From Promethearchaeota archaeon (GTDB taxonomy: Archaea; Asgardarchaeota; Lokiarchaeia; Sigyniarchaeales; SOKP01): a stretch of 64,000 nt of DNA. The notes below the pieces were generated by a model. That model searched no databases. It had not been told where the DNA came from and worked only from the letters and a program-made list of their open reading frames with translations. Position 1 is the first letter of the stretch, and each line of letters opens with the position of its first letter. The position numbers and the translations under genes are program-made. Below, in pieces: positions 14,242 to 26,390 of the stretch. The stretch spans positions 100,813 through 164,812 of the forward strand of contig JAEOTA010000036.1 in assembly GCA_016840085.1 (NCBI GenBank), written 5' to 3'.

Positions 14242-16125
14242 TTAAGATATTATTCCTAATTCTTTTAATTTTTCTTCAGTTGGTCTTCCTGTTTCCCAAT
14301 CCCATCCACGAATACTATAATACTTCTTCAAATTGTCCTCTAAGTCAAGTTTTACTCCTTTTATTCTTCCTGAGGATAAAATTTTCATATTATGATTAGT
14401 TAATCTGTCGTCTTTTCTTGTAATTCCTAAATTACAGCTGATTAAACGTTTCAGATTGTTTATACGCTCCCCAACTTTCATTAGTGATTTTCTATCATAA
14501 TTAAACCCAGTGGCAGCATTAATATATCCGATAATGTGTTCGAGTGAAGGATTTGCAAAATTACAATTCACAGCAGAATCATCAATAGCTCTAAGATCTT
14601 GAAGATTAATAATTCCTCTTTCTCTTCCTTTAATATCATTTCTTCCTTTACTTCTTTTGATACGTAGAACTTGAAAAGTTACATTTCCTAATTCAGCTCC
14701 ATACCAATCACATTTATTATGATTCGCACCTACACATCCAGTCATATAACTTAAAGCTTGTCCTGCAAATGCGCGAGGTTCATGCATGGGTATCTCTAGT
14801 CCCTTTACGTGAGCTGCTAATTCAGGATCAACTTCTAACTTATCAGCTATGATTCTCACACCTTCAGCAAGAACCTCACCTATTCCTTCCCTTTTAACTA
14901 TTTTTTCAATAAGTTTGCAGACAATTTCACCATTTCCCCACTTAATATCTTCTATTGGAATATTATTTAAGTACTTCTTTATTTTTTCAATTCCTAGATT
15001 ATTTTGAACTAAATAAATTAGAAACGCAATTGAGACGCCACAAGAAATAGTATCGATTCCATATTTATTACATAAATGATTTGCAAGAATAACAGGTTTT
15101 GAATTAAATACACCGCATAAAGTTCCTAATGCAGCAACAGATTCATATTCTGGACCGTCAATTTCAATATCTTTACCATCTATATTAATTATTGTTGATT
15201 TACCACACTTTATTGTACAACCTACGCATCCATAATTAAAGACAGGATATTTTTCTCTTAGAGTCTTCCCAGTTAAATTTTCGGCAAAAAATTCTGCCTC
15301 TGTAAAATAATATCCTGGTGTATCCCCGTTAACCATCCCCAGATCGAGATACATATTTGTACCATATAAATTAAAAAGTAAGGAACCTATATTTGCCATC
15401 ATATTTTCTTCCTTTTCGAGTTCCTCCTGCTTTCTTAATTTTTTACCGAGTTCATTATCAGCAAGATTAATCCTTTTTGTTCCCTCTATTACTAGCGCTT
15501 TTAAATTCTTTGACCCCATAAGAGCTCCTAATCCACATCTACCTACTGCTCTTCTCTCATCATTTATTATTGCTCCATATTTCACAAGGCTTTCTCCCCC
15601 AGGTCCAATACAAGCAATCCGAACTTTTGGGTTATTTAATTCATCTTTAATTAGTTTTTGAGTCTCATAACAATCTTTTCCGTTTAAATTTGAAGCGTCT
15701 CTAAACTCAAATTCCCCATTATGGATATACAAATAAGTTGATTTCTCTGCCTTTCCTGAGAAAACAATAGCATCAAATCCACTATTTCTCAAGGAGATAC
15801 AAAACGATCCTCCTGAAGATCCTTCACCCCAAATCCCCGTTAAGGGTGATATACCACTCACAGTATAACGACCTGAAGATGGTCGAATAGTGCCTGTTAT
15901 AGGACCAGTCGCAAAAATTAATGGGTTAATATCTGAATAAGGATTTTCTTTCAATTTATTGTAATCATCTTTTGATAGTAGATCGTAGATTATTTTAGCG
16001 CTTAAACCTGTCCCTCCTAAGTATTCTTTAGCAGTTTTTGGATCTAAATCTTTTATTTCAAAATTTTTTTTGGTTAAATCAACAAAAAGGATTTTTCCAT
16101 TATAACCATATAATTTATCATTCAT
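14242..16125 (-). CDS. aor: Tungsten aldehyde:ferredoxin oxidoreductase family protein
   Basis: SPLTG, GRCGLGALMGSKNLKA, CVGCTIKC, GPEYE, GIDTIS and KGLEIPMHEPR motifs. Confidence 0.93.
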   Translation of the reverse strand: MNDKLYGYNGKILFVDLTKKNFEIKDLDPKTAKEYLGGTGLSAKIIYDLLSKDDYNKLKENPYSDINPLIFATGPITGTIRPSSGRYTVSGISPLTGIWGEGSSGGSFCISLRNSGFDAIVFSGKAEKSTYLYIHNGEFEFRDASNLNGKDCYETQKLIKDELNNPKVRIACIGPGGESLVKYGAIINDERRAVGRCGLGALMGSKNLKALVIEGTKRINLADNELGKKLRKQEELEKEENMMANIGSLLFNLYGTNMYLDLGMVNGDTPGYYFTEAEFFAENLTGKTLREKYPVFNYGCVGCTIKCGKSTIINIDGKDIEIDGPEYESVAALGTLCGVFNSKPVILANHLCNKYGIDTISCGVSIAFLIYLVQNNLGIEKIKKYLNNIPIEDIKWGNGEIVCKLIEKIVKREGIGEVLAEGVRIIADKLEVDPELAAHVKGLEIPMHEPRAFAGQALSYMTGCVGANHNKCDWYGAELGNVTFQVLRIKRSKGRNDIKGRERGIINLQDLRAIDDSAVNCNFANPSLEHIIGYINAATGFNYDRKSLMKVGERINNLKRLISCNLGITRKDDRLTNHNMKILSSGRIKGVKLDLEDNLKKYYSIRGWDWETGRPTEEKLKELGIIS

Positions 16126-16148
16126 TCTTTTAAATCACTCCAAATAAT

Positions 16149-17444
16149 TTAAAAATCAATAGTTCTGCCGTCCCAGGCATATTCAAACATTCTTTTTAAA
16201 ATTTCTTTATCGATATAACGAGAAGATAAGAGAGCTACTGCATCATTTTCAGCATAATTTACTAAGAGATCTAAATTTTTGTGATATTCCTCCTCATTAA
16301 TAACAGGATTCTTTATTTCTTTCACACATACTGGGCCATCTAATGAATATATGAAATCTTTAACATTTTGAAGAAATTCAATAAATAACTCATCATTATC
16401 TTTGTTTTTAGAATCAATTCCAAAAAGAGGGCATAAATCTTTCCACCTTTCTGAAATTTTCGCTTGGAAAGCGATCGTATAAGGTAGAAACATGCCTACA
16501 CAGAGTCCATGATGAACCCTGCATACTTTCCCTAAACTATGGCCTAAGGCATGATCAATTCCAACGCGAGAATTACTAAATCCGAGTCCTGCCATCAATG
16601 CTGCTAATTGCATATGTAATCTTGCTTCTATATCTTTTGCTCCATATTTATATGCTCGAGGCAAATATGTTATTATTTCTTTAATAGCATATATATTCAT
16701 GGCATCCGTGAGGGGGTTTCCCCAAGATGATACGTACGCTCCTGCTGCATGAGCTAATGCGTCAAGTCCGGTCGCCATGGTTAAAAAAGGTGGCATATCT
16801 TTTACAAAATCAGTTATTAAAACTGCAAAATCAGGAACTAACTCAGAATGGGCGAGGGCTAATTTTTTCGGAGGATCTCGATTTATGTCAGTTAACATTG
16901 CTGCACTGGTAACTTCAGATCCCGTTCCTGATGTTGTCGGAATAGCTATTAAATATTTAATTTTTTTACGTAAACCAAGGCTTCCAAAAGGTAAAATCAT
17001 ATATAGATTCGTTTCAGGTTTCTCGTATTTAATCATTACAGCTTTTGCAGTGTCAATTACACTCCCTCCACCAATTGCCACAAAGATTTTAGGCTTAAAA
17101 TCTTCACATATTTTTACAGCTTCTTCAATAGTATCAAAAGGAGCCTCTGGTTTCACTCCTGACCATACTTTTGACGACATATTAATTTTATTTAATTCTT
17201 TGCTTATTTGGCTGGCAAATTTCACAGTAAAATCATCAGTTATTATTAAAGCCCTTCTATCTTCTTCTTCAAGACTGGCATCTAAGAATCCACTTAACTG
17301 ATTTAATGCTGCTATTCCAAATAAAATTTGTGCTGTTCGAAAAGATGCCATTAATCCAGCTGGTGCTCGTCCTTTCAATGCACCTATAAGATCTTTTATC
17401 ATATCACTTTCATAAAAAGCTATTTGCTCAGGTTCATTTTCCAA
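16149..17444 (-). CDS. Iron-containing alcohol dehydrogenase
   Basis: AIGGGSVIDTAK, IPTTSGTGSEVT, GLDALAHA and HALGHSLG..HHG motifs. Confidence 0.93.
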   Translation of the reverse strand: MENEPEQIAFYESDMIKDLIGALKGRAPAGLMASFRTAQILFGIAALNQLSGFLDASLEEEDRRALIITDDFTVKFASQISKELNKINMSSKVWSGVKPEAPFDTIEEAVKICEDFKPKIFVAIGGGSVIDTAKAVMIKYEKPETNLYMILPFGSLGLRKKIKYLIAIPTTSGTGSEVTSAAMLTDINRDPPKKLALAHSELVPDFAVLITDFVKDMPPFLTMATGLDALAHAAGAYVSSWGNPLTDAMNIYAIKEIITYLPRAYKYGAKDIEARLHMQLAALMAGLGFSNSRVGIDHALGHSLGKVCRVHHGLCVGMFLPYTIAFQAKISERWKDLCPLFGIDSKNKDNDELFIEFLQNVKDFIYSLDGPVCVKEIKNPVINEEEYHKNLDLLVNYAENDAVALLSSRYIDKEILKRMFEYAWDGRTIDF

Positions 17445-18304: not shown

Positions 18305-19102
18305 CTAGCGATCATCAGATTTACTTTGTTTATAATCCAGTTCTCTCTTGATGAAATTTATATTCTCTTTAAGAGTATCTGCGATAGGTTCATCACTCAG
18401 ATTAAGGTTATCCAAAATATCTATAGCATCTTCAAAAAGTTTTAATGCTTCTGGATATTGAGAACGTTTGTAATACACACCAGGTATGTTGAAGAATTTA
18501 AACGCAATACATTGTATTGCTGTTATTAAAACCCAAATTATTATAAGTATTGTTAATATCCATTCTATTAATGGATTAAGCGTAATTAAAAGGAGCAATA
18601 AAACACCTCCTATAATAAAGCCGTAATATGCTACGTATTTTTTAAAAGCTGGTCCTTTATATAATTTTGATTTAGGGCCTTGATACATTAATATACTATA
18701 AAGAACAATATATATACCTGATCCAGTAAAAGCTATAACTGCAACAAAAGCGTGAAATATAAGAAAGGCTTCTATGTATGTCTCATCAGGAATTATACCA
18801 ACTAAAGCAATACACACACAAGTGAAAACCGATATCCCTGTAGCTAGTCTTCTAATATTGTCTTCTATATTTACTAATTCTCTTTCGAGATATAGAAAAA
18901 ATGGGATTAGTAATGACCCAGCTACCACAAAACCAATACTAAATAATGACTTTGCTTGACCTTCCCCTAAAGAACTTACAGCATGTCTTAATGGAGTATA
19001 TCCAGGAGTAAGACATGCAGCAATAGGCAATATTATAGCTACAAATAATGTTCCAAAAAAACCAAATAAAACTTCCATCCTAGTTTCCTTTCTTGATACC
19101 AT
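18305..19102 (-). CDS. DUF998-family membrane protein with C-terminal TPR-like helix pair
   Basis: PGYTPLRHAVSSLG and IFHAFVA motifs, ~6 TM segments, GVYYKRSQYPEALKLFEDAI tail. Confidence 0.7.
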   Translation of the reverse strand: MVSRKETRMEVLFGFFGTLFVAIILPIAACLTPGYTPLRHAVSSLGEGQAKSLFSIGFVVAGSLLIPFFLYLERELVNIEDNIRRLATGISVFTCVCIALVGIIPDETYIEAFLIFHAFVAVIAFTGSGIYIVLYSILMYQGPKSKLYKGPAFKKYVAYYGFIIGGVLLLLLITLNPLIEWILTILIIIWVLITAIQCIAFKFFNIPGVYYKRSQYPEALKLFEDAIDILDNLNLSDEPIADTLKENINFIKRELDYKQSKSDDR

Positions 19103-19420
19103 TATAATTTAACCTCATTTAATATAGCCTTTTTGAATCTCTAGTTTTTTTTTAATAAAATAATTTGTCAATAAACTTATTAAATTTTTACTTGATTTGT
19201 GTTAATTAAATTTTTTTTGGTGATAGGGAAATACAAAAAAATTTGAAAAAATATCAACCTTTAGTAAATGTTTTAAATAAATATGTAATATTCATTAAAC
19301 ATAAAAAATTAAATAAAAAAGAATCATAAAGTCTTAATTAAGAAAAAAGAGCTAAAAATTTTTGTTCAATCTATAATAAAGCTCTAAAAATTAACATTAT
19401 TCGAGATATTGTGAAAAATC

Positions 19421-19966
19421 ATGGAAGAAGAATTAAAAGAAAAATTTACATTTAAGGTAACGGTCATTGGAGACGGATTTGTAGGGAAGACATCTTTAAT
19501 AAATAAATTTACTCAAGGAGGTTTTCAAGAAGATTACATTCAAACTATTGGAGCTCAATGGTCAAAATTTGAAGAAGAACTTGAGGGAGATATATGTAAA
19601 CTATTTTTTTGGGATATAGCTGGTCAAGATGCGTTCCATTTTTTACGACCTGTTTTTTATAAATCAAGTTTAGCAGCTATTATAGTCTTTTCTATTGAGG
19701 ATAATGATTTTGGTCAAGAAAGTTTCAAACATGTAGTGAATTGGCATGACGAGATCAAGAAATTTTGTGGTGATATTCCAGTTGTACTTTTCGGTAATAA
19801 ATTTGATCTAGTTGATGAAGAAAATATAGATGATGAAAATATTTTAAAATTAGTTGACAAGCGGAACTTTATTGGGTATTATCGAACATCAGCAAAAACA
19901 GGACATAATGTTGAGGATGCCTTCAAAGCAATAATTAAAGAATTACATGATAGATATAAATCTTAA
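19421..19966 (+). CDS. Rab-like small GTPase
   Basis: GDGFVGKT, WDIAGQ, NKFD and TSAK motifs. Confidence 0.93.
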   Translation: MEEELKEKFTFKVTVIGDGFVGKTSLINKFTQGGFQEDYIQTIGAQWSKFEEELEGDICKLFFWDIAGQDAFHFLRPVFYKSSLAAIIVFSIEDNDFGQESFKHVVNWHDEIKKFCGDIPVVLFGNKFDLVDEENIDDENILKLVDKRNFIGYYRTSAKTGHNVEDAFKAIIKELHDRYKS

Positions 19967-20117
19967 AACTCAGTTTCAATCTCAAAACATAAATTATCCC
20001 TAAAAAAATGCAGTTTCTGTGGTAAGAAAATTGAAATAGAGCCATCCTAATTAATATGTTTTAGACATTTTATAGGAGTAATCAAGATAAAAAAAAATAA
20101 GAAAAAATAATTAATTT

Positions 20118-20704
20118 CTAACTTTTATAGTCTTCAAGAATAGTGCCAAAAAGACGCTTTACAGCATCAATTCGAGTTTCTTCGCCAATTTGTTCAACAT
20201 CTTTCAAGCTAATAGCTTCTTTTGGACAAACTAAGATACACTGGGGTTCCTTTACACCACTTTCCTCATCAATAAATTCTTCTTTCATGTTTTCGCAGAG
20301 ATCACAAACCAATGCTTTTTGAGTATCCAAGTGTAGGCTAATCACGCCAAAATCGCAGGCTCTCTTGCTAATGTACGCGATTTGCTAATACATTCTACGC
20401 AGAACCCGCAACCATTACATTTATCATCATCTACGATAATAGATCCTGTTTCTGGATTTTGTTCTAAAGCTTTTTCTGGACAACTACGAATACATGGCGC
20501 ATCTTCGCATTTTTGGCATGCTAATGCAATATTAAATATTGGTTCGATTCTAACTCTATGAATTCTTGCATTAATAGGGTTAAATTCACTATCATGAACA
20601 AAAGAACATACTGATTCGCATGTTTCACATCCTGTGCATAAATTCGGGTCAATAACAATGAATTGGTGGACTTTGCCACCTCTCTTTTTTATTTTACTTG
20701 ACAT
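20118..20704 (-). CDS. 4Fe-4S electron-transfer subunit of AOR, interrupted by a 32-nt putative intron; join(20704..20396, 20363..20118), 184 aa
   Basis: Removing 20364-20395 fuses the two track ORFs into ...KCNGCGFCVRACDFGVISLHLDTQKALVCDLC..., a complete DmsB/HydN-type four-cluster protein. The ATG directly follows the aor stop codon. Confidence 0.85.
20364..20395 (-). other. Putative bulge-helix-bulge (BHB) intron in an mRNA
   Basis: Sequence GAAUGUAUUAGCAAAUCGCGUACAUUAGCAAG. Outer exon-exon helix of 10-12 bp, 3-nt bulges UA^G and AG^A, central helix UGCG/AGCA with one G.A pair, inner helix AAUGUA/UACAUU. Confidence 0.75.
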
Positions 20705-22633
20705 TTACTTTTTCTTACCTCCTGCTGGGGTTAATTTTCCAATTACAAAATCCATACCAAGTTTCTTTAGGGTTGCATCTGTTGGGATTCCTGTTTCTTT
20801 ATCCCATCCTCTTGCTTCATAATATCCACTAAGTAACTTCTGATACCCATCTTCATCTAATGTAACTCCTTTTGCTGGACCTTTCGTATGAGGTTCCTTA
20901 AAGAATCTTTCAGGCGGATGATCGTCCGCTCTTGTCCAACCCTCCCTGATATTAAAACACTTTGAAAGTGTTACAATCGCATCTCCTCTTAAAAGCATGG
21001 ATTCTTCTGTGTGTGGAATGCCTGTGACTAATTCATATACCTTTGCCATTTCTGCGTCAGATTCGTAAATACCTCTCGTAAATTTACAAATTATATAAGA
21101 ATCAATAAGAGCATAGACATCTTCTAGCCCCTTAATTGTTTTTCCGCGATCAAGTGGTTTATCATAAGCAAATCTATCAAAAGTACCTTTGGCATCTAAA
21201 CCATATGCTCCATTACGTAAGTGGCAAGCACCTCGTATTGAAACACTCTCTCCAACTGCAAAAGAAGTCATACCATGTAAATCAAAAGCAGGCATCTCTA
21301 AACCTTTAATATGCATACCATAATAGCTAGCATTCTTCCGACCCATTTCTTCTAATCTCCTTCCAGCTTCTTTGGTGCCATCACCAAAAACTTCTCCAGC
21401 AAAACCTTTTCCAAGGATCATTTCTTCTGTAAATCGTACTAGATTTTTCGTAGAACCAAAGGGTAATTTATATCCTAAATCTTTTTCTGTAACAATACCT
21501 TCCTCGAAGCATTCCATACACATTGCAGCCGTAACTCCGCCCGAAATAGCGTCGATTCCTAAGTCATCACATAAAGCAACGCATTTGAATACCGTAGGCC
21601 AGTCATCATTACCACAGGCAGTACCAAAGCTATAACAAATCTCAACATCAATGCTCGCAAATGTGTTTGGCCAATCGGGATGAGTTTTTGGAATTCGTGC
21701 AATATGATCACATGCTATTGAACATTGGGAACAAGCAACTTTTTTCACAACCCAATCAATATTAAGTGTATCACCAGTAAATGTACCATCATCAATTTTC
21801 TCCCAGGTACCCTCCTGGTGATTACGAATAGGAAACATACCAAGCTTATTATAGCTTGTAATACCTGCGGGCGTCCCTAAATCTCGATACTTCGCGGTTG
21901 CTGGGCCATTTGCTACTTTAATCAATTTTTTAGCCTTATTATAGAATTCAACTGGTTTTGCTACTTTGGTACCTTTAGTACCTCTGAAACAAATTGCTTT
22001 TAAATTTTTAGATCCCATAACAGCTCCCATACCTGTTCTACCAGCCTGACGATTTCTATCATTAGTGATACACGCCAATTTACTCATTCTCTCACCCGCA
22101 GAACCTATTGCTAATACAGCTAGTCGTTGATCTTGAAATTCTTCTCGTAGTAATTCTTCAGTTTCCCAACAACCTTTACCCAACAAAGTTTTTTCACATG
22201 GAACTAAATAATAATCGTCATCATCCACAACCATATAAATGGGTTCAGGAGACTTTCCCTTGATTACAATCATATTAATTCCTGCTCTACGAGCTTGGGC
22301 CCCTATAGAGCCAGAAGAAATTGACATACCAAACATTCCAGTTAATGGAGACTTTGCAAAAATACCATATTTGGAGCTAGTTGGTAATATTGTTGTTGGA
22401 AAAGGACCAATGTTCCATATAAATATATTATCTGGGCCTAATGGGTCAATCCCGGGTTTTAGCTCGTCCCATAATACTTTAGCACCAAAACCATAACCTC
22501 CGATCCAATCACGACAGAATTCATCAGATAATTCAGTTTTATCAATTTTTCCCGTAGTCAAATCAACATCAAGTCTAACTTGAGTATATCCTTCAATCTT
22601 ATCAGGTAAAGTTACTTCTTTAGCCTTACTCAT
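20705..22633 (-). CDS. aor: Tungsten aldehyde:ferredoxin oxidoreductase family protein (second paralogue)
   Basis: KSPLTG, AGRTGMGAVMGSKNLKA, CSQCSIAC, GIDAIS and RGACH motifs. ATG 22633 preferred; GTG 22642 is an alternative start. Confidence 0.93.
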   Translation of the reverse strand: MSKAKEVTLPDKIEGYTQVRLDVDLTTGKIDKTELSDEFCRDWIGGYGFGAKVLWDELKPGIDPLGPDNIFIWNIGPFPTTILPTSSKYGIFAKSPLTGMFGMSISSGSIGAQARRAGINMIVIKGKSPEPIYMVVDDDDYYLVPCEKTLLGKGCWETEELLREEFQDQRLAVLAIGSAGERMSKLACITNDRNRQAGRTGMGAVMGSKNLKAICFRGTKGTKVAKPVEFYNKAKKLIKVANGPATAKYRDLGTPAGITSYNKLGMFPIRNHQEGTWEKIDDGTFTGDTLNIDWVVKKVACSQCSIACDHIARIPKTHPDWPNTFASIDVEICYSFGTACGNDDWPTVFKCVALCDDLGIDAISGGVTAAMCMECFEEGIVTEKDLGYKLPFGSTKNLVRFTEEMILGKGFAGEVFGDGTKEAGRRLEEMGRKNASYYGMHIKGLEMPAFDLHGMTSFAVGESVSIRGACHLRNGAYGLDAKGTFDRFAYDKPLDRGKTIKGLEDVYALIDSYIICKFTRGIYESDAEMAKVYELVTGIPHTEESMLLRGDAIVTLSKCFNIREGWTRADDHPPERFFKEPHTKGPAKGVTLDEDGYQKLLSGYYEARGWDKETGIPTDATLKKLGMDFVIGKLTPAGGKKK

Positions 22634-22847
22634 ATTTTTCACTTAAAATTAATTTTTAAATTTGTATTTGATTGTAGATATTAAAAATAAACTATCAAAA
22701 TTTTAAAGGTTACTTGTTAACCCTAAAAAACACTTTCTTTAAGATTAGTGAAATCATAAATAGGAGTAAGAATGGTTGGTGTTGTTGATTAATTTACATA
22801 ACTGTAAATGTAGTGTTTTTAAAATGAATTTTCTTACTAACTCTTTC

Positions 22848-23294
22848 TTACCAAAATTCGACCTTCAATGTATTTTGAATTGTTTTTACTATACTAAAAT
22901 GGTTTTTATCTGAAGTTATTATAGTAAAATCTCTTGAAATTGCTATTGCACTAAGAATTGCATCAATTAAAGGAATTGGTTTTCCGTTTAGTTTTAATTT
23001 ATATAATAACTCTCCAAGAATCTTAGCATCCTCCAAGTTTAAGGAAATTACTCTTTTTTGAGCATCTAGATAATTGACCATTTTATCAAAAAGCTTTTTC
23101 TGAATATTCAATTTTTCAAGACTTTTTTGTTGAAATTCCTGATCTTGAAATCCAATATATATTTCTGAAATCGAATAAGTAGTAAGATAGATAGGTTGAT
23201 TTTTAGAGGATATTGACTGATATTTTTTTACAATTTCTTGTTTTCCGCGTAAAATCGCAATGATAATATTAGTATCAAGTAAAAACATTGTCAT
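22848..23294 (-). CDS. vapC: VapC PIN-domain toxin
   Basis: FLLDTNIII, SISEIYIG, IDAILSAIA and ITSDKNHF motifs. Confidence 0.9.
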   Translation of the reverse strand: MTMFLLDTNIIIAILRGKQEIVKKYQSISSKNQPIYLTTYSISEIYIGFQDQEFQQKSLEKLNIQKKLFDKMVNYLDAQKRVISLNLEDAKILGELLYKLKLNGKPIPLIDAILSAIAISRDFTIITSDKNHFSIVKTIQNTLKVEFW

Positions 23295-23297
23295 CTA

Positions 23298-23540
23298 TTA
23301 TTTTATATTATTCGTTAAATAAGAGGATCGATAAGATTTTATTAGTTGTTCGATTTCTTCCCACAACTCATTATCATCACTAAAAATACCAGAAAATTCT
23401 AGTAAGGGATCCTTTAAAAACGGATCTTGCATAGAACAGAGACGAATAATCAAATCTGAATATGATTCATTTTCTTTCTTCAATTTTTTAAGCATTTTAT
23501 AAGATTTTTCATTTAACGAGATTGTTTTTTGAGTCATCAT
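23298..23540 (-). CDS. vapB: VapB-family antitoxin
   Basis: KTISLNEKSYKMLKKLKKENESYSDLIIRL pattern; 3 nt upstream of vapC. Confidence 0.88.
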   Translation of the reverse strand: MMTQKTISLNEKSYKMLKKLKKENESYSDLIIRLCSMQDPFLKDPLLEFSGIFSDDNELWEEIEQLIKSYRSSYLTNNIK

Positions 23541-23627
23541 TAGTCTTATATTATTTTAAATATAAATAGATTTCTATTTAGATCTATTTACCCTAAAAAA
23601 ATAGAATATAGTAAAAATTTTAAAGTC

Positions 23628-26390
23628 TTAAATGAGAAATAGTAGTTTACCAATGAAATTTATAAGATCAATTATTTTTATCTTATATTTTAGCTCTTTA
23701 TGTTCATTTAGATAACAATTTAGATGAGCTATGCACTTAGGGCATGCAGTAATTAAATATTCTGCACCTGTATCAATAGCTTGAGTAATTTTCTTTTCTT
23801 GTAAGAGTTTTGAATCTTCACTACATGAAATATATGCTGAAACTCCGCAACAATCAGCATCTTGTCTATTGTCTTCCATTTCAATTAACTCTACAGAGGG
23901 TATTAATTTTAAAACTTCTCGAGGGGCATCGAAAACCTTACTCAATCTACCAAGTCTACATGGATCATGATAGGTTACTTTAATTTTATCAAAACTTGGA
24001 AATGTTATGCCTTCAAATAAGTTTTCTTTTAAAATATATTCAGTAATATGGTATATTTCAAAATCAAACTCAGCACTGTCTTTGAAAAGAGTTTTATATT
24101 CATTTTTCCAAGTATAATATCCTTCAGCGCAGCTAAACACAATTGTTTTAACTCCTGCTTCTTTAAAGAGTTTAACGTTATATTTAGCTAGTTTCTCAAA
24201 ACTTTTGATATCACCTTGCCATAAAAGATCATGCCCACAACATTTTTCTTCACCTAAAACTACTGGTGTAATATCACTTTGGTTCATTAGTGCTATTACA
24301 CTTTTTGGTATCTCTAAATAATCTAATGTATTAGTTGAACTAAAATTTGGCTGTTCTCCATAATGACAAGTCATAATCCCTGAAGAATCAAGCGATTTAT
24401 TATAATCATCAAGAATTTGATCATAGCTACAGCAGCAATTACAATTCATGCATCTATTTGCCTCTTCAATTGCTTGTGCCTCTGTAAAACCAATTTCTAT
24501 TTCTTCAAAATTAGAGAGTCTTTTTTTTCCTGGTACAAGATTGATTTTTTGTTGCTCTTCTTCTTCAATCTGTTTTTTGGGTATAGGTGAACGTTTTAAA
24601 TTTTCTTTTTTTATCCTTCCTTTTTTTAAATTACGTCCTCTGAGATAACGATCAATTGAATATGCAGCTTCTTGTCCGTGCCCTATTGCTGTTATAGCAA
24701 CCATTTTCGGATTTGGAACAATATCTCCTCCCGCAAAAACACCAGGAATGCTTGTTTCAAAAGTGGTGTTGTCTACTAAGATTTTACCTCTTTCATGTTT
24801 TAATTGATCACCAGTAGCAGCTAGGATTGGTTCTAAGTCCAATCCTTGACCAATTGCGATAACAATTATATCAGCAGTAATTTTAACTTCCGAATTCTCA
24901 ACTTTACTTAATGATTTTCGCCCTGTTTTCGGATCAGGTTCACCCCATTCAATTTTATAACAATTTAAAGCTAATTTATTGTCAGACTCTTCCGTTATTT
25001 TTGAAGTAGAGGTCTTAAAGTGATAAGTTATTAATTCCCATTCAGCGTCATGAATATCTCTAAGAACTAGTTTTAGATCTTCTTCAGTTAATATATCTAC
25101 AAGATCAACTTTAGTTGCCCCTAGCCGTAGGGCAATTTCAGCAACATCAACAGCAACAGCCCCACCCCCTATAATTCCAAACCTTTTCCCTTTGAACTCA
25201 TCTTTATTTTGGGGGAATTTATATTTACGTTCTAATAGAAAATCAAGAGCAACATGCACATTTGGGAGATTTTCTCCCTCAAGGCGAAGAGTTTTTGGAA
25301 TATATAGGCCTGTAGCAAGAAAAAATGCTTTATAATCCTGTTTTTTAAGATCAGCAAGAGTTAAATCTGGTCCAAAGGATTTATTTGTTAAGATTTCAAC
25401 TCCCATATTTTTTATGAACTCAACATCATTATCAAGTGCTTTATCTGAGAGTCTATGTTGTGGAACTCCATATCTAACCATCCCCCCAATTTTATCCCCT
25501 TTTTCGAAAATTGTAGGTTTATATCCCATTCTTGCAAGAAAATAAGCAGCAGATAATCCTGCAGGTCCGGCACCAATTATTGCTATTTTTTCTTTATCTT
25601 GTTTTACAGGTTTTATTTTACTTAAATTAGGATTATTCATTTCCCAATCTGAGACAAATCGTTTTAAAACTCTAATAGCAATTGGATCGTCAATATATTG
25701 ACGATTGCAATTTAGCGCACAGTATTCTGTACATATTCTCCCGCATAAGAAAGGTAAAGGGTTAGCTTCCCTTATAAGATCAATAGCTTCTTGAAACTTT
25801 CCTTCTGCTATTAAAGAGACATAGCCTTGGACATCTACACCAGCAGGACATGCGCATGAACATGGGGCAATTCCAGTCATATATGGAGTGCACCCCATAA
25901 AATAACCAATTTCTCCCTTATCAGTTACCTTTAAATCGGTTCCTTCCAAAAAACCAAGCTTATTTGTAATTTTTATTTTATCATTAGCCATTAAATAGGG
26001 TAAACTAGAGTATTCTCTATTATGATGACATTTAAGCATTTCATCTTGTAATGGTTTGTAATCTGAAGCGAGAGAACGGAGATCTTTTATAATTTGAGTG
26101 AAATTAACCCCAATTTCTTCTTTTGTCATAGGGCAATATTCGGAACATAATCCACATGTAAGGCATTTCCAAATATTATTATTCTTTAGAACCTCTTCTG
26201 GAGATAAAAAGGATAAATCCACAATTAAACTACGAGGATAAAAGAGGTCAAGAAATGCTGTAGGACAAACATTATTACAGCGATTACAATTATAACAGTA
26301 ATCAGCAGCAGCATTTACTTTCTTAATAATTTCTATTGACTCCTTACTCACAAGTTTTTCAATTGGTTCTTTATCTTTAGATACCATCAT
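23628..26390 (-). CDS. HdrD/GlpC-like CCG Fe-S oxidoreductase with an inserted GltD/NfnB-like FAD/NAD(P) domain
   Basis: N-terminal CYNCNRCNNVCP and CLTCGLCSEYCP, then GYFMGC. GltD block: CPAGVDVQGY, CGRIC, IIGAGPAGL, VFAGGD, EANRCMNC. Then CCGHD, YHDPCRLGR, CCG and TACPKC. Confidence 0.88.
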   Translation of the reverse strand: MMVSKDKEPIEKLVSKESIEIIKKVNAAADYCYNCNRCNNVCPTAFLDLFYPRSLIVDLSFLSPEEVLKNNNIWKCLTCGLCSEYCPMTKEEIGVNFTQIIKDLRSLASDYKPLQDEMLKCHHNREYSSLPYLMANDKIKITNKLGFLEGTDLKVTDKGEIGYFMGCTPYMTGIAPCSCACPAGVDVQGYVSLIAEGKFQEAIDLIREANPLPFLCGRICTEYCALNCNRQYIDDPIAIRVLKRFVSDWEMNNPNLSKIKPVKQDKEKIAIIGAGPAGLSAAYFLARMGYKPTIFEKGDKIGGMVRYGVPQHRLSDKALDNDVEFIKNMGVEILTNKSFGPDLTLADLKKQDYKAFFLATGLYIPKTLRLEGENLPNVHVALDFLLERKYKFPQNKDEFKGKRFGIIGGGAVAVDVAEIALRLGATKVDLVDILTEEDLKLVLRDIHDAEWELITYHFKTSTSKITEESDNKLALNCYKIEWGEPDPKTGRKSLSKVENSEVKITADIIVIAIGQGLDLEPILAATGDQLKHERGKILVDNTTFETSIPGVFAGGDIVPNPKMVAITAIGHGQEAAYSIDRYLRGRNLKKGRIKKENLKRSPIPKKQIEEEEQQKINLVPGKKRLSNFEEIEIGFTEAQAIEEANRCMNCNCCCSYDQILDDYNKSLDSSGIMTCHYGEQPNFSSTNTLDYLEIPKSVIALMNQSDITPVVLGEEKCCGHDLLWQGDIKSFEKLAKYNVKLFKEAGVKTIVFSCAEGYYTWKNEYKTLFKDSAEFDFEIYHITEYILKENLFEGITFPSFDKIKVTYHDPCRLGRLSKVFDAPREVLKLIPSVELIEMEDNRQDADCCGVSAYISCSEDSKLLQEKKITQAIDTGAEYLITACPKCIAHLNCYLNEHKELKYKIKIIDLINFIGKLLFLI

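Follow-up and report, generated by a model that had tools for sequence, protein, structure and literature searches.

A putative bulge-helix-bulge mRNA intron in the 4Fe-4S subunit gene of an Asgard aldehyde oxidoreductase operon

The window (the whole 64,000-nt stretch of DNA analysed here) carries on its minus strand a gene for a 4x[4Fe-4S] subunit, hereafter the host gene, directly behind a gene of the aldehyde ferredoxin oxidoreductase (AFOR) family, and the two genes probably form one operon (Table 1). The AFOR-family gene (22642-20705) matches NCBIfam NF007354 with an E-value of 2e-60, under the equivalog cut-off, and the same neighbour is matched by Pfam AFOR_N/AFOR_C beside other carriers of the insert described below. 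Relatives of the host gene, mostly labelled Promethearchaeota (Lokiarchaeia), possess it as a single ORF of about 184-188 aa, and its 5' exon shares 83-92% identity with orthologues of the same genus. An intact orthologue (L004), which also sits behind an AFOR-family gene, matches the Fe-S subunits of tungsten aldehyde oxidoreductases (PDB 6x6u_B, 6x1o_B and 8c0z_C; E 1e-23 to 1e-21), a likeness that identifies the host protein only. For the genes of these subunits no interruption is known, whereas the host gene would, without splicing, consist of a 120-aa ORF (20704-20342) and a separate tail frame ending at 20118.

Several further genes surround the operon. A second AFOR-family gene (627 aa; window 14242-17444, minus strand) lies 3 kb from the AOR operon and follows an iron-containing alcohol dehydrogenase. 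Upstream (22848-26390, minus strand), genes of 80 and 148 aa resemble an antitoxin/PIN (VapBC-like) pair, which stands between AOR and a 920-aa HdrD/GltD-like fusion; these assignments were read from the sequence. A small Rab/Ras-like GTPase gene (19421-19966, plus strand; motifs identified by eye) is convergent with the host gene and faces its 3' end.

Table 1. Coordinates of the host gene, its neighbour and the elements of the predicted intron in the window.
Feature	Position	Strand	Remark
AFOR (aldehyde ferredoxin oxidoreductase) family gene	20705..22642	-	adjoins host gene on upstream side, probable operon
5' exon, codons 1-103, 4x[4Fe-4S] subunit (HydN/DmsB-like, AorA/WOR-S type)	20396..20704	-	
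Outer (exon-exon) helix, 5' arm	20402..20413	-	20411-20402, extendable by GG at 20413-20412
Central helix, 5' strand UGCG	20398..20401	-	
5' bulge UAG, predicted cut after second base	20395..20397	-	cut rule PMC2738675
Putative intron, 32 nt, predicted cuts UA^G and AG^A	20364..20395	-	absent from 131 orthologues
Intron hairpin, inner helix of 6-7 bp and loop	20370..20394	-	inner arms 20394-20389 and 20375-20370
Central helix, 3' strand AGCA	20366..20369	-	
3' bulge AGA, predicted cut after second base	20363..20365	-	
Outer (exon-exon) helix, 3' arm	20351..20362	-	
3' exon, codons 104-184 and stop	20118..20363	-	begins with invariant Arg; carries fourth Cys of interrupted motif

The insert lies between codons 103 and 104, within the third Cys motif (CxxCxxCxxxC) of the host gene. 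An earlier note on this DNA had proposed that a 32-nt insert at 20395-20364 of the minus strand breaks the 4Fe-4S gene and folds into a bulge-helix-bulge (BHB), and both the insert and every element of the fold were recovered to the base. The 10-bp outer helix with its GG extension amounts to 12 contiguous pairs, followed by three of four central pairs (three Watson-Crick, with a G.A beside the 5' bulge) and seven inner pairs. The splicing endonuclease EndA cuts between the second and third bulge base (PMC2738675). As the note had predicted from this rule, taking out 20395-20364 restores a 184-aa frame with zero internal stops that reads CNGCGFCVRAC. The predicted spliced junction joins TTCTGCGTA to AGAGCCTGC, and the peptides expected are CNGCGFCVR if the transcript is spliced and CNGCGFCVECISK if it is not. 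The codons flanking the insert, likewise remarked upon in the note, are indeed unusual: among the intron-free orthologues GCC occurs in 6/131 and TTC in 29/131, and GGG is outside the six commonest codons at its place.

The fold of the BHB stretch is stronger than that of shuffled sequence (z = -3.37; none of 200 shuffles equals it), and when shuffled inserts are placed between the real exon flanks, 8 of 20,000 pair equally well. The genome (4.7 Mb) was also scanned for BHB-like sites at which excision would fuse two open frames. Of the 794 sites of this kind, the one in the window comes first with -22.2 kcal/mol, against -16.1 kcal/mol for the runner-up and -13.8 kcal/mol for the best mirror-geometry control; since true and mirror geometries are about equally frequent in bulk (794 vs 804), this top rank is the only informative outcome, and a genome-wide de novo count of mRNA introns from the scan is unusable. 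A codon-usage filter proved too strict, as it lost the window site itself. We note that the second-ranked site (G000:C8:8126, minus strand) is a 37-nt BHB-like candidate with 4/4 central pairs, between frames of 74 and 201 codons.

Without constraints, the minimum free energy structure opens the central helix into a 6x6 internal loop, and the BHB conformer lies about 2.5 kcal/mol higher. Because the energy model favours the open central helix by this amount, we regard the motif as relaxed rather than canonical. The best-paired register yields C-V-R-A-C, and the Arg is found in 131/131 intron-free orthologues; the Cys columns of this alignment are invariant partly through the construction of the filter, the Arg column is not. 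Alternative registers, both those shifted by one base and those with CVEAC or CVGAC joins, form weak pairing and do not retain the invariant Arg, and other 32-nt or frame-restoring removals in the window pair poorly and leave Gly or Lys at the junction. Fold and protein homology thus agree, independently of each other, on the same predicted cut. Group I or II self-splicing introns and other Rfam families were rejected, the insert being only 32 nt long and showing no Rfam match at E<=1 in a search of 19000-24000. The insert was not found a second time in the genome, either among tRNA introns or at other sites; the best match is 14 nt. Within the insert there is an 8-nt direct repeat, ATTAGCAA, at window positions 20382-20389 and 20365-20372 (minus strand), 17 nt apart; a deletion between its copies would give an in-frame 15-nt insert, which is seen in no relative.

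The window's insert type recurs in L062, L027 (genome G024), L292 and L293 with 1-3 substitutions in 32 positions, and an independent contig from a marsh study (X9 record 23) covers 20326-20481 gap-free. The earlier note had allowed for an assembly artefact. Although the genome is a metagenome bin, such an origin has a negligible probability, already refuted by these contigs, which bring the same insert, with substitutions, from independent assemblies and studies.

In a core set of 139 orthologues, 8 carry an intron and 131 do not, close sisters of the carriers among the latter. The three tree-placed carriers of the window's insert type form one clade (support 100/97). Among them, dN/dS in the 3' exon is 0.030/1.00, 0.036/1.00 and 0.048/0.34 (range 0.03-0.14), and in the 5' exon of carriers of this type it is 0.02-0.05. 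Synonymous divergence among them is about one half, whereas protein and insert have hardly changed and the gene has acquired no further lesions. To judge from these substitutions, both exons are under purifying selection and the host gene is maintained in carriers. It would be a dead gene if the insert were an inactivating lesion and the hairpin a relic or a product of chance, as the broken frame and the presence of other 4Fe-4S paralogues in the genome (27-33% identity to the host protein) might suggest. We consider such a pseudogene highly improbable, because protein and insert stayed nearly the same while synonymous sites diverged (dS up to 1.0 between insert-sharing carriers), and because the inserts of many lineages all restore the gene exactly under the BHB rule. 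A protein search returned no full-length product more than 90% identical to that of the window, and only truncated products of further carriers.

A second intron family lies one base upstream, within an Ile codon, in at least seven further lineages (L020; L036/L063/L290/L294; L088; L297; L115; L303; L127; L299/L300; L295). Its members are 31 or 32 nt long, most have a complete central helix (4/4), and all yield C-I-R-A-C under the same cut rule. In five of them (L020, L036, L088, L115, L127), 94% of cells pair, compared with 32-57% in slid controls, and four pairs show double (compensatory) changes, a number reached by 0/500 shuffles, although with so few and related sequences this figure is not a probability. 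The covariation that the earlier note had looked to among orthologues is consequently present in the upstream family, and missing from the window's own type, where the three carriers show zero compensatory pairs and one inner pair is broken in L027. The intron of L295 (within 801-1226) is 31 nt long with a perfect central helix and gives the same spliced protein; intron length is therefore free modulo 3.

These variants also bear on whether the ribosome, rather than RNA splicing, could deal with the insert, by programmed frameshifting, by a bypassing hop, or by translating the two halves separately. In the window, the frame does stay open through the insert, and a GTG, a possible restart, shares bases with the TGA that closes the 120-aa frame. 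A frameshift, on the other hand, would set about 10 residues between the Cys ligands, the take-off and landing codons for a hop are mismatched, and L027 and L062 have GTA in place of the putative GTG restart, which would in any case lose the fourth Cys. In addition, some upstream-family carriers have a stop codon two codons into the insert; because these and the 31-nt insert of L295 all give C-I-R-A-C, a shared frameshift mechanism is excluded. Taken as a whole, recoding or split translation has in our estimate a very small probability, and a spliced intron remains the preferred reading.

Further inserts of this kind occur in the same gene and in another. A 30-nt in-frame BHB insert with divergent sequences is found in the first Cys motif in four lineages (L027; L036/L063/L290/L294; L127; L299/L300); the window's copy is without it. 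The sole gene for RNA polymerase subunit N, rpo10 (G000:C69:52786-52816; L222), is split by a 31-nt relaxed BHB insert, and the sole copy is likewise split in three relatives, G001, G008 and G016 (L286, L287, L289). Taking out the rpo10 insert restores the conserved HVDLID tail, so that the same process would be required for a core subunit of RNA polymerase. As a separate observation, in the 638-bp contig L298 the host gene breaks off three codons past the intron site, where an unrelated ORF (397-636; 80 aa or more) takes its place. Pfam and protein searches gave no match for this ORF, and the only lead, an annexin-like one from the atlas, is weak; either an insertion or chimerism of the contig could account for it.

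With regard to the machinery, RtcB is present in the genome. The single EndA match in the assembly lacks the catalytic His and groups with the weaker-scoring of the two subunits of relatives. A catalytic EndA alpha subunit was not found in the window's assembly (98.8% marker completeness); because it is missing together with most of its neighbouring genes, its absence suggests an assembly gap. The alpha subunit was found in 24/24 genus relatives searched, the carriers G016 and G024 included. Asgard EndA is an (alpha-beta)2 enzyme with an L1 loop linked to relaxed substrates (PMC5829648). We note that ARAGORN calls only 26 tRNA genes on the window's assembly (G000); most of the calls contain introns and the anticodons of several are implausible, which would fit tRNAs that are heavily interrupted.

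The missing catalytic subunit might be taken to mean that the insert is removed otherwise, by another nuclease and ligase pair, or by precise DNA excision in part of the population, and one contig of run X5 is indeed without the insert. At the joint, however, the letters of that contig are different, and an intron-free relative is its best reading. The insert shows no repeats at its ends, the geometry obeys the EndA rule in every carrier family, and EndA alpha is universal among the relatives searched. We thus hold removal by a route other than EndA to be very unlikely.

The upstream family is spread over several parts of the tree, its carriers being nested among sisters that have no intron. 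In the 30 exon bases round the junction, L020, L036 and L115 differ from one another at 1-3 positions and from their own sisters at 5-10, and their distal exons differ by 23-31%. Similarly, the flanks of most carriers that are distant from one another show 0-4/30 differences, as opposed to 4-10/30 to intron-free sisters. The 30-nt flank of L295 differs from that of the window clade at 0-1 positions, its distal exon by 20-37%, and 0/131 intron-free genes come within 3 differences of that flank. These comparisons suggest that the intron travelled from lineage to lineage along with about 30 nt of flank. The shared flanks could in part reflect convergent selection for pairing rather than transfer; pure convergence is argued against because the flanks of L295 suit the window's register better than L295's own.

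The window's version lies one base downstream of the commoner register, and a one-base slide possibly gave rise to its weaker central helix, with L295 as a possible intermediate for both the lateral transfer and the 1-nt slide. Within its one small clade, we infer that this version was inherited vertically. Homing typically leaves a signature in which flanking exon is transferred along with the intron. No homing endonuclease was noted among the ORFs round seven carriers or among called neighbours, and the LAGLIDADG matches of the genome are all on contigs other than that of the host gene. A homing intron with its own nuclease was accordingly rejected, the insert being 32 nt long, ORF-less and without an adjacent homing endonuclease.

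The earlier note had further likened the insert to the introns of HAC1 and XBP1 and proposed that its splicing gates production of the AOR electron-transfer subunit. In HAC1 and XBP1, a short non-spliceosomal mRNA intron is cut out by IRE1 at two stem-loops under stress and the exons are joined by a tRNA ligase (RtcB for XBP1); these introns are conserved and regulatory, and that of XBP1 also shifts the frame. A conserved, regulated gate would be a sub-case of EndA/RtcB splicing. Its appeal is that the intron lies in a ligand motif, so that unspliced mRNA would give a dead product, that a relaxed central helix could make splicing rate-limiting, and that the cbf5 intron has been proposed to act in regulation (PMC2738675). 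Conservation is where the comparison fails: the intron is absent from 131/139 orthologues, close sisters of the carriers included. Its position varies (two registers and a second site), carriers are scattered over the tree, the flanks are apparently mobile, the pattern of spread looks selfish, and unrelated rpo10 has similar inserts. A regulatory gate of this type is therefore unlikely. Of the note's interpretation, the BHB mRNA intron has gained strong support from the comparison of carriers, and the gate has gained none.

In sum, we assign a probability of roughly 0.88 to the reading that the insert is an mRNA intron spliced by EndA and RtcB. The transcript would fold into the BHB, an (alpha-beta)2 EndA would cut behind the second base of both bulges, and RtcB would ligate the exons, giving the 184-aa 4x[4Fe-4S] partner of AOR. 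Our best reading of the distribution is that the intron is tolerated and mobile rather than a regulatory gate: a mobile insert with no nuclease of its own, which may persist at this conserved Cys motif since nothing but its exact removal would be viable, and whose family would have travelled between lineages with about 30 nt of flanking exon. Beyond this locus, we think it somewhat more likely than not that Loki-type Asgard archaea routinely splice protein-coding mRNAs with their tRNA machinery, and that ORF-less mini-introns form mobile families that carry flanks and slide by single bases. If so, a non-spliceosomal wave of coding-gene introns would exist in the closest prokaryotic relatives of eukaryotes, and many "frameshifted" or "split" Asgard genes would be intact, which would put metabolic reconstructions and pseudogene counts off. 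The site would offer a living model of how short introns enter and persist in conserved coding motifs with no spliceosome. It is also a convenient test case, with the strongest fold in the genome, a spliced product made unambiguous by the frameshift, and variants in two registers and two lengths.

In the literature searched (most subscription journals not covered), no BHB introns in coding genes of Asgard archaea are described. EndA splicing of archaeal mRNA is confirmed there only for cbf5 and one Haloferax 5' UTR (PMC7714728, PMC10485636), which leaves archaeal cbf5, within that same coverage, as the only confirmed case inside a coding sequence. The HVO_1309 5' UTR intron of Haloferax volcanii (PMC7714728; spliced form in PMC10485636) is likewise an mRNA BHB intron and is cleaved by EndA; unlike the window site, it lies in an untranslated leader, breaks no frame and is cut by an alpha2 enzyme. 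The tRNA introns of Asgard archaea (bioRxiv 10.64898/2026.10.13.758758) are, as here, short BHB-bounded inserts with repeated gains in Asgard lineages. That study is confined to tRNA genes and nowhere uses the word mRNA, and it found no general arrival route, whereas at the window site distant carriers have flanks in common. As portrayed in PMC2738675, archaeal rRNA introns with homing endonucleases are BHB-spliced, patchy among close relatives and mobile, similarly to the family described here; the window intron differs from them in that it is too short for a nuclease gene and lies in an mRNA.

The closest likeness is with the cbf5 intron of Desulfurococcales and Sulfolobales (Watanabe 2002; Yokobori 2009, PMC2738675), which is 16-44 nt long, compared with 31-32 nt here. 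In both cases an ORF-less intron interrupts a coding sequence at a functionally critical codon, the BHB is relaxed with cuts (predicted, in the present case) between the second and third bulge base, and the host has, or in the present case probably has, an (alpha-beta)2 EndA. The cbf5 intron occupies one site, was gained once and is mostly inherited; the introns described here, by contrast, occupy at least three positions, are patchy and show signs of lateral spread with their flanks. Furthermore, cbf5 is an RNA-modification gene whose splicing was shown by cDNA, while the present case concerns the predicted splicing of an Asgard redox gene. In every feature that sequence could settle, namely fold, restored protein, selection and conservation of structure, the insert resembles what would be expected of a cbf5-type intron.
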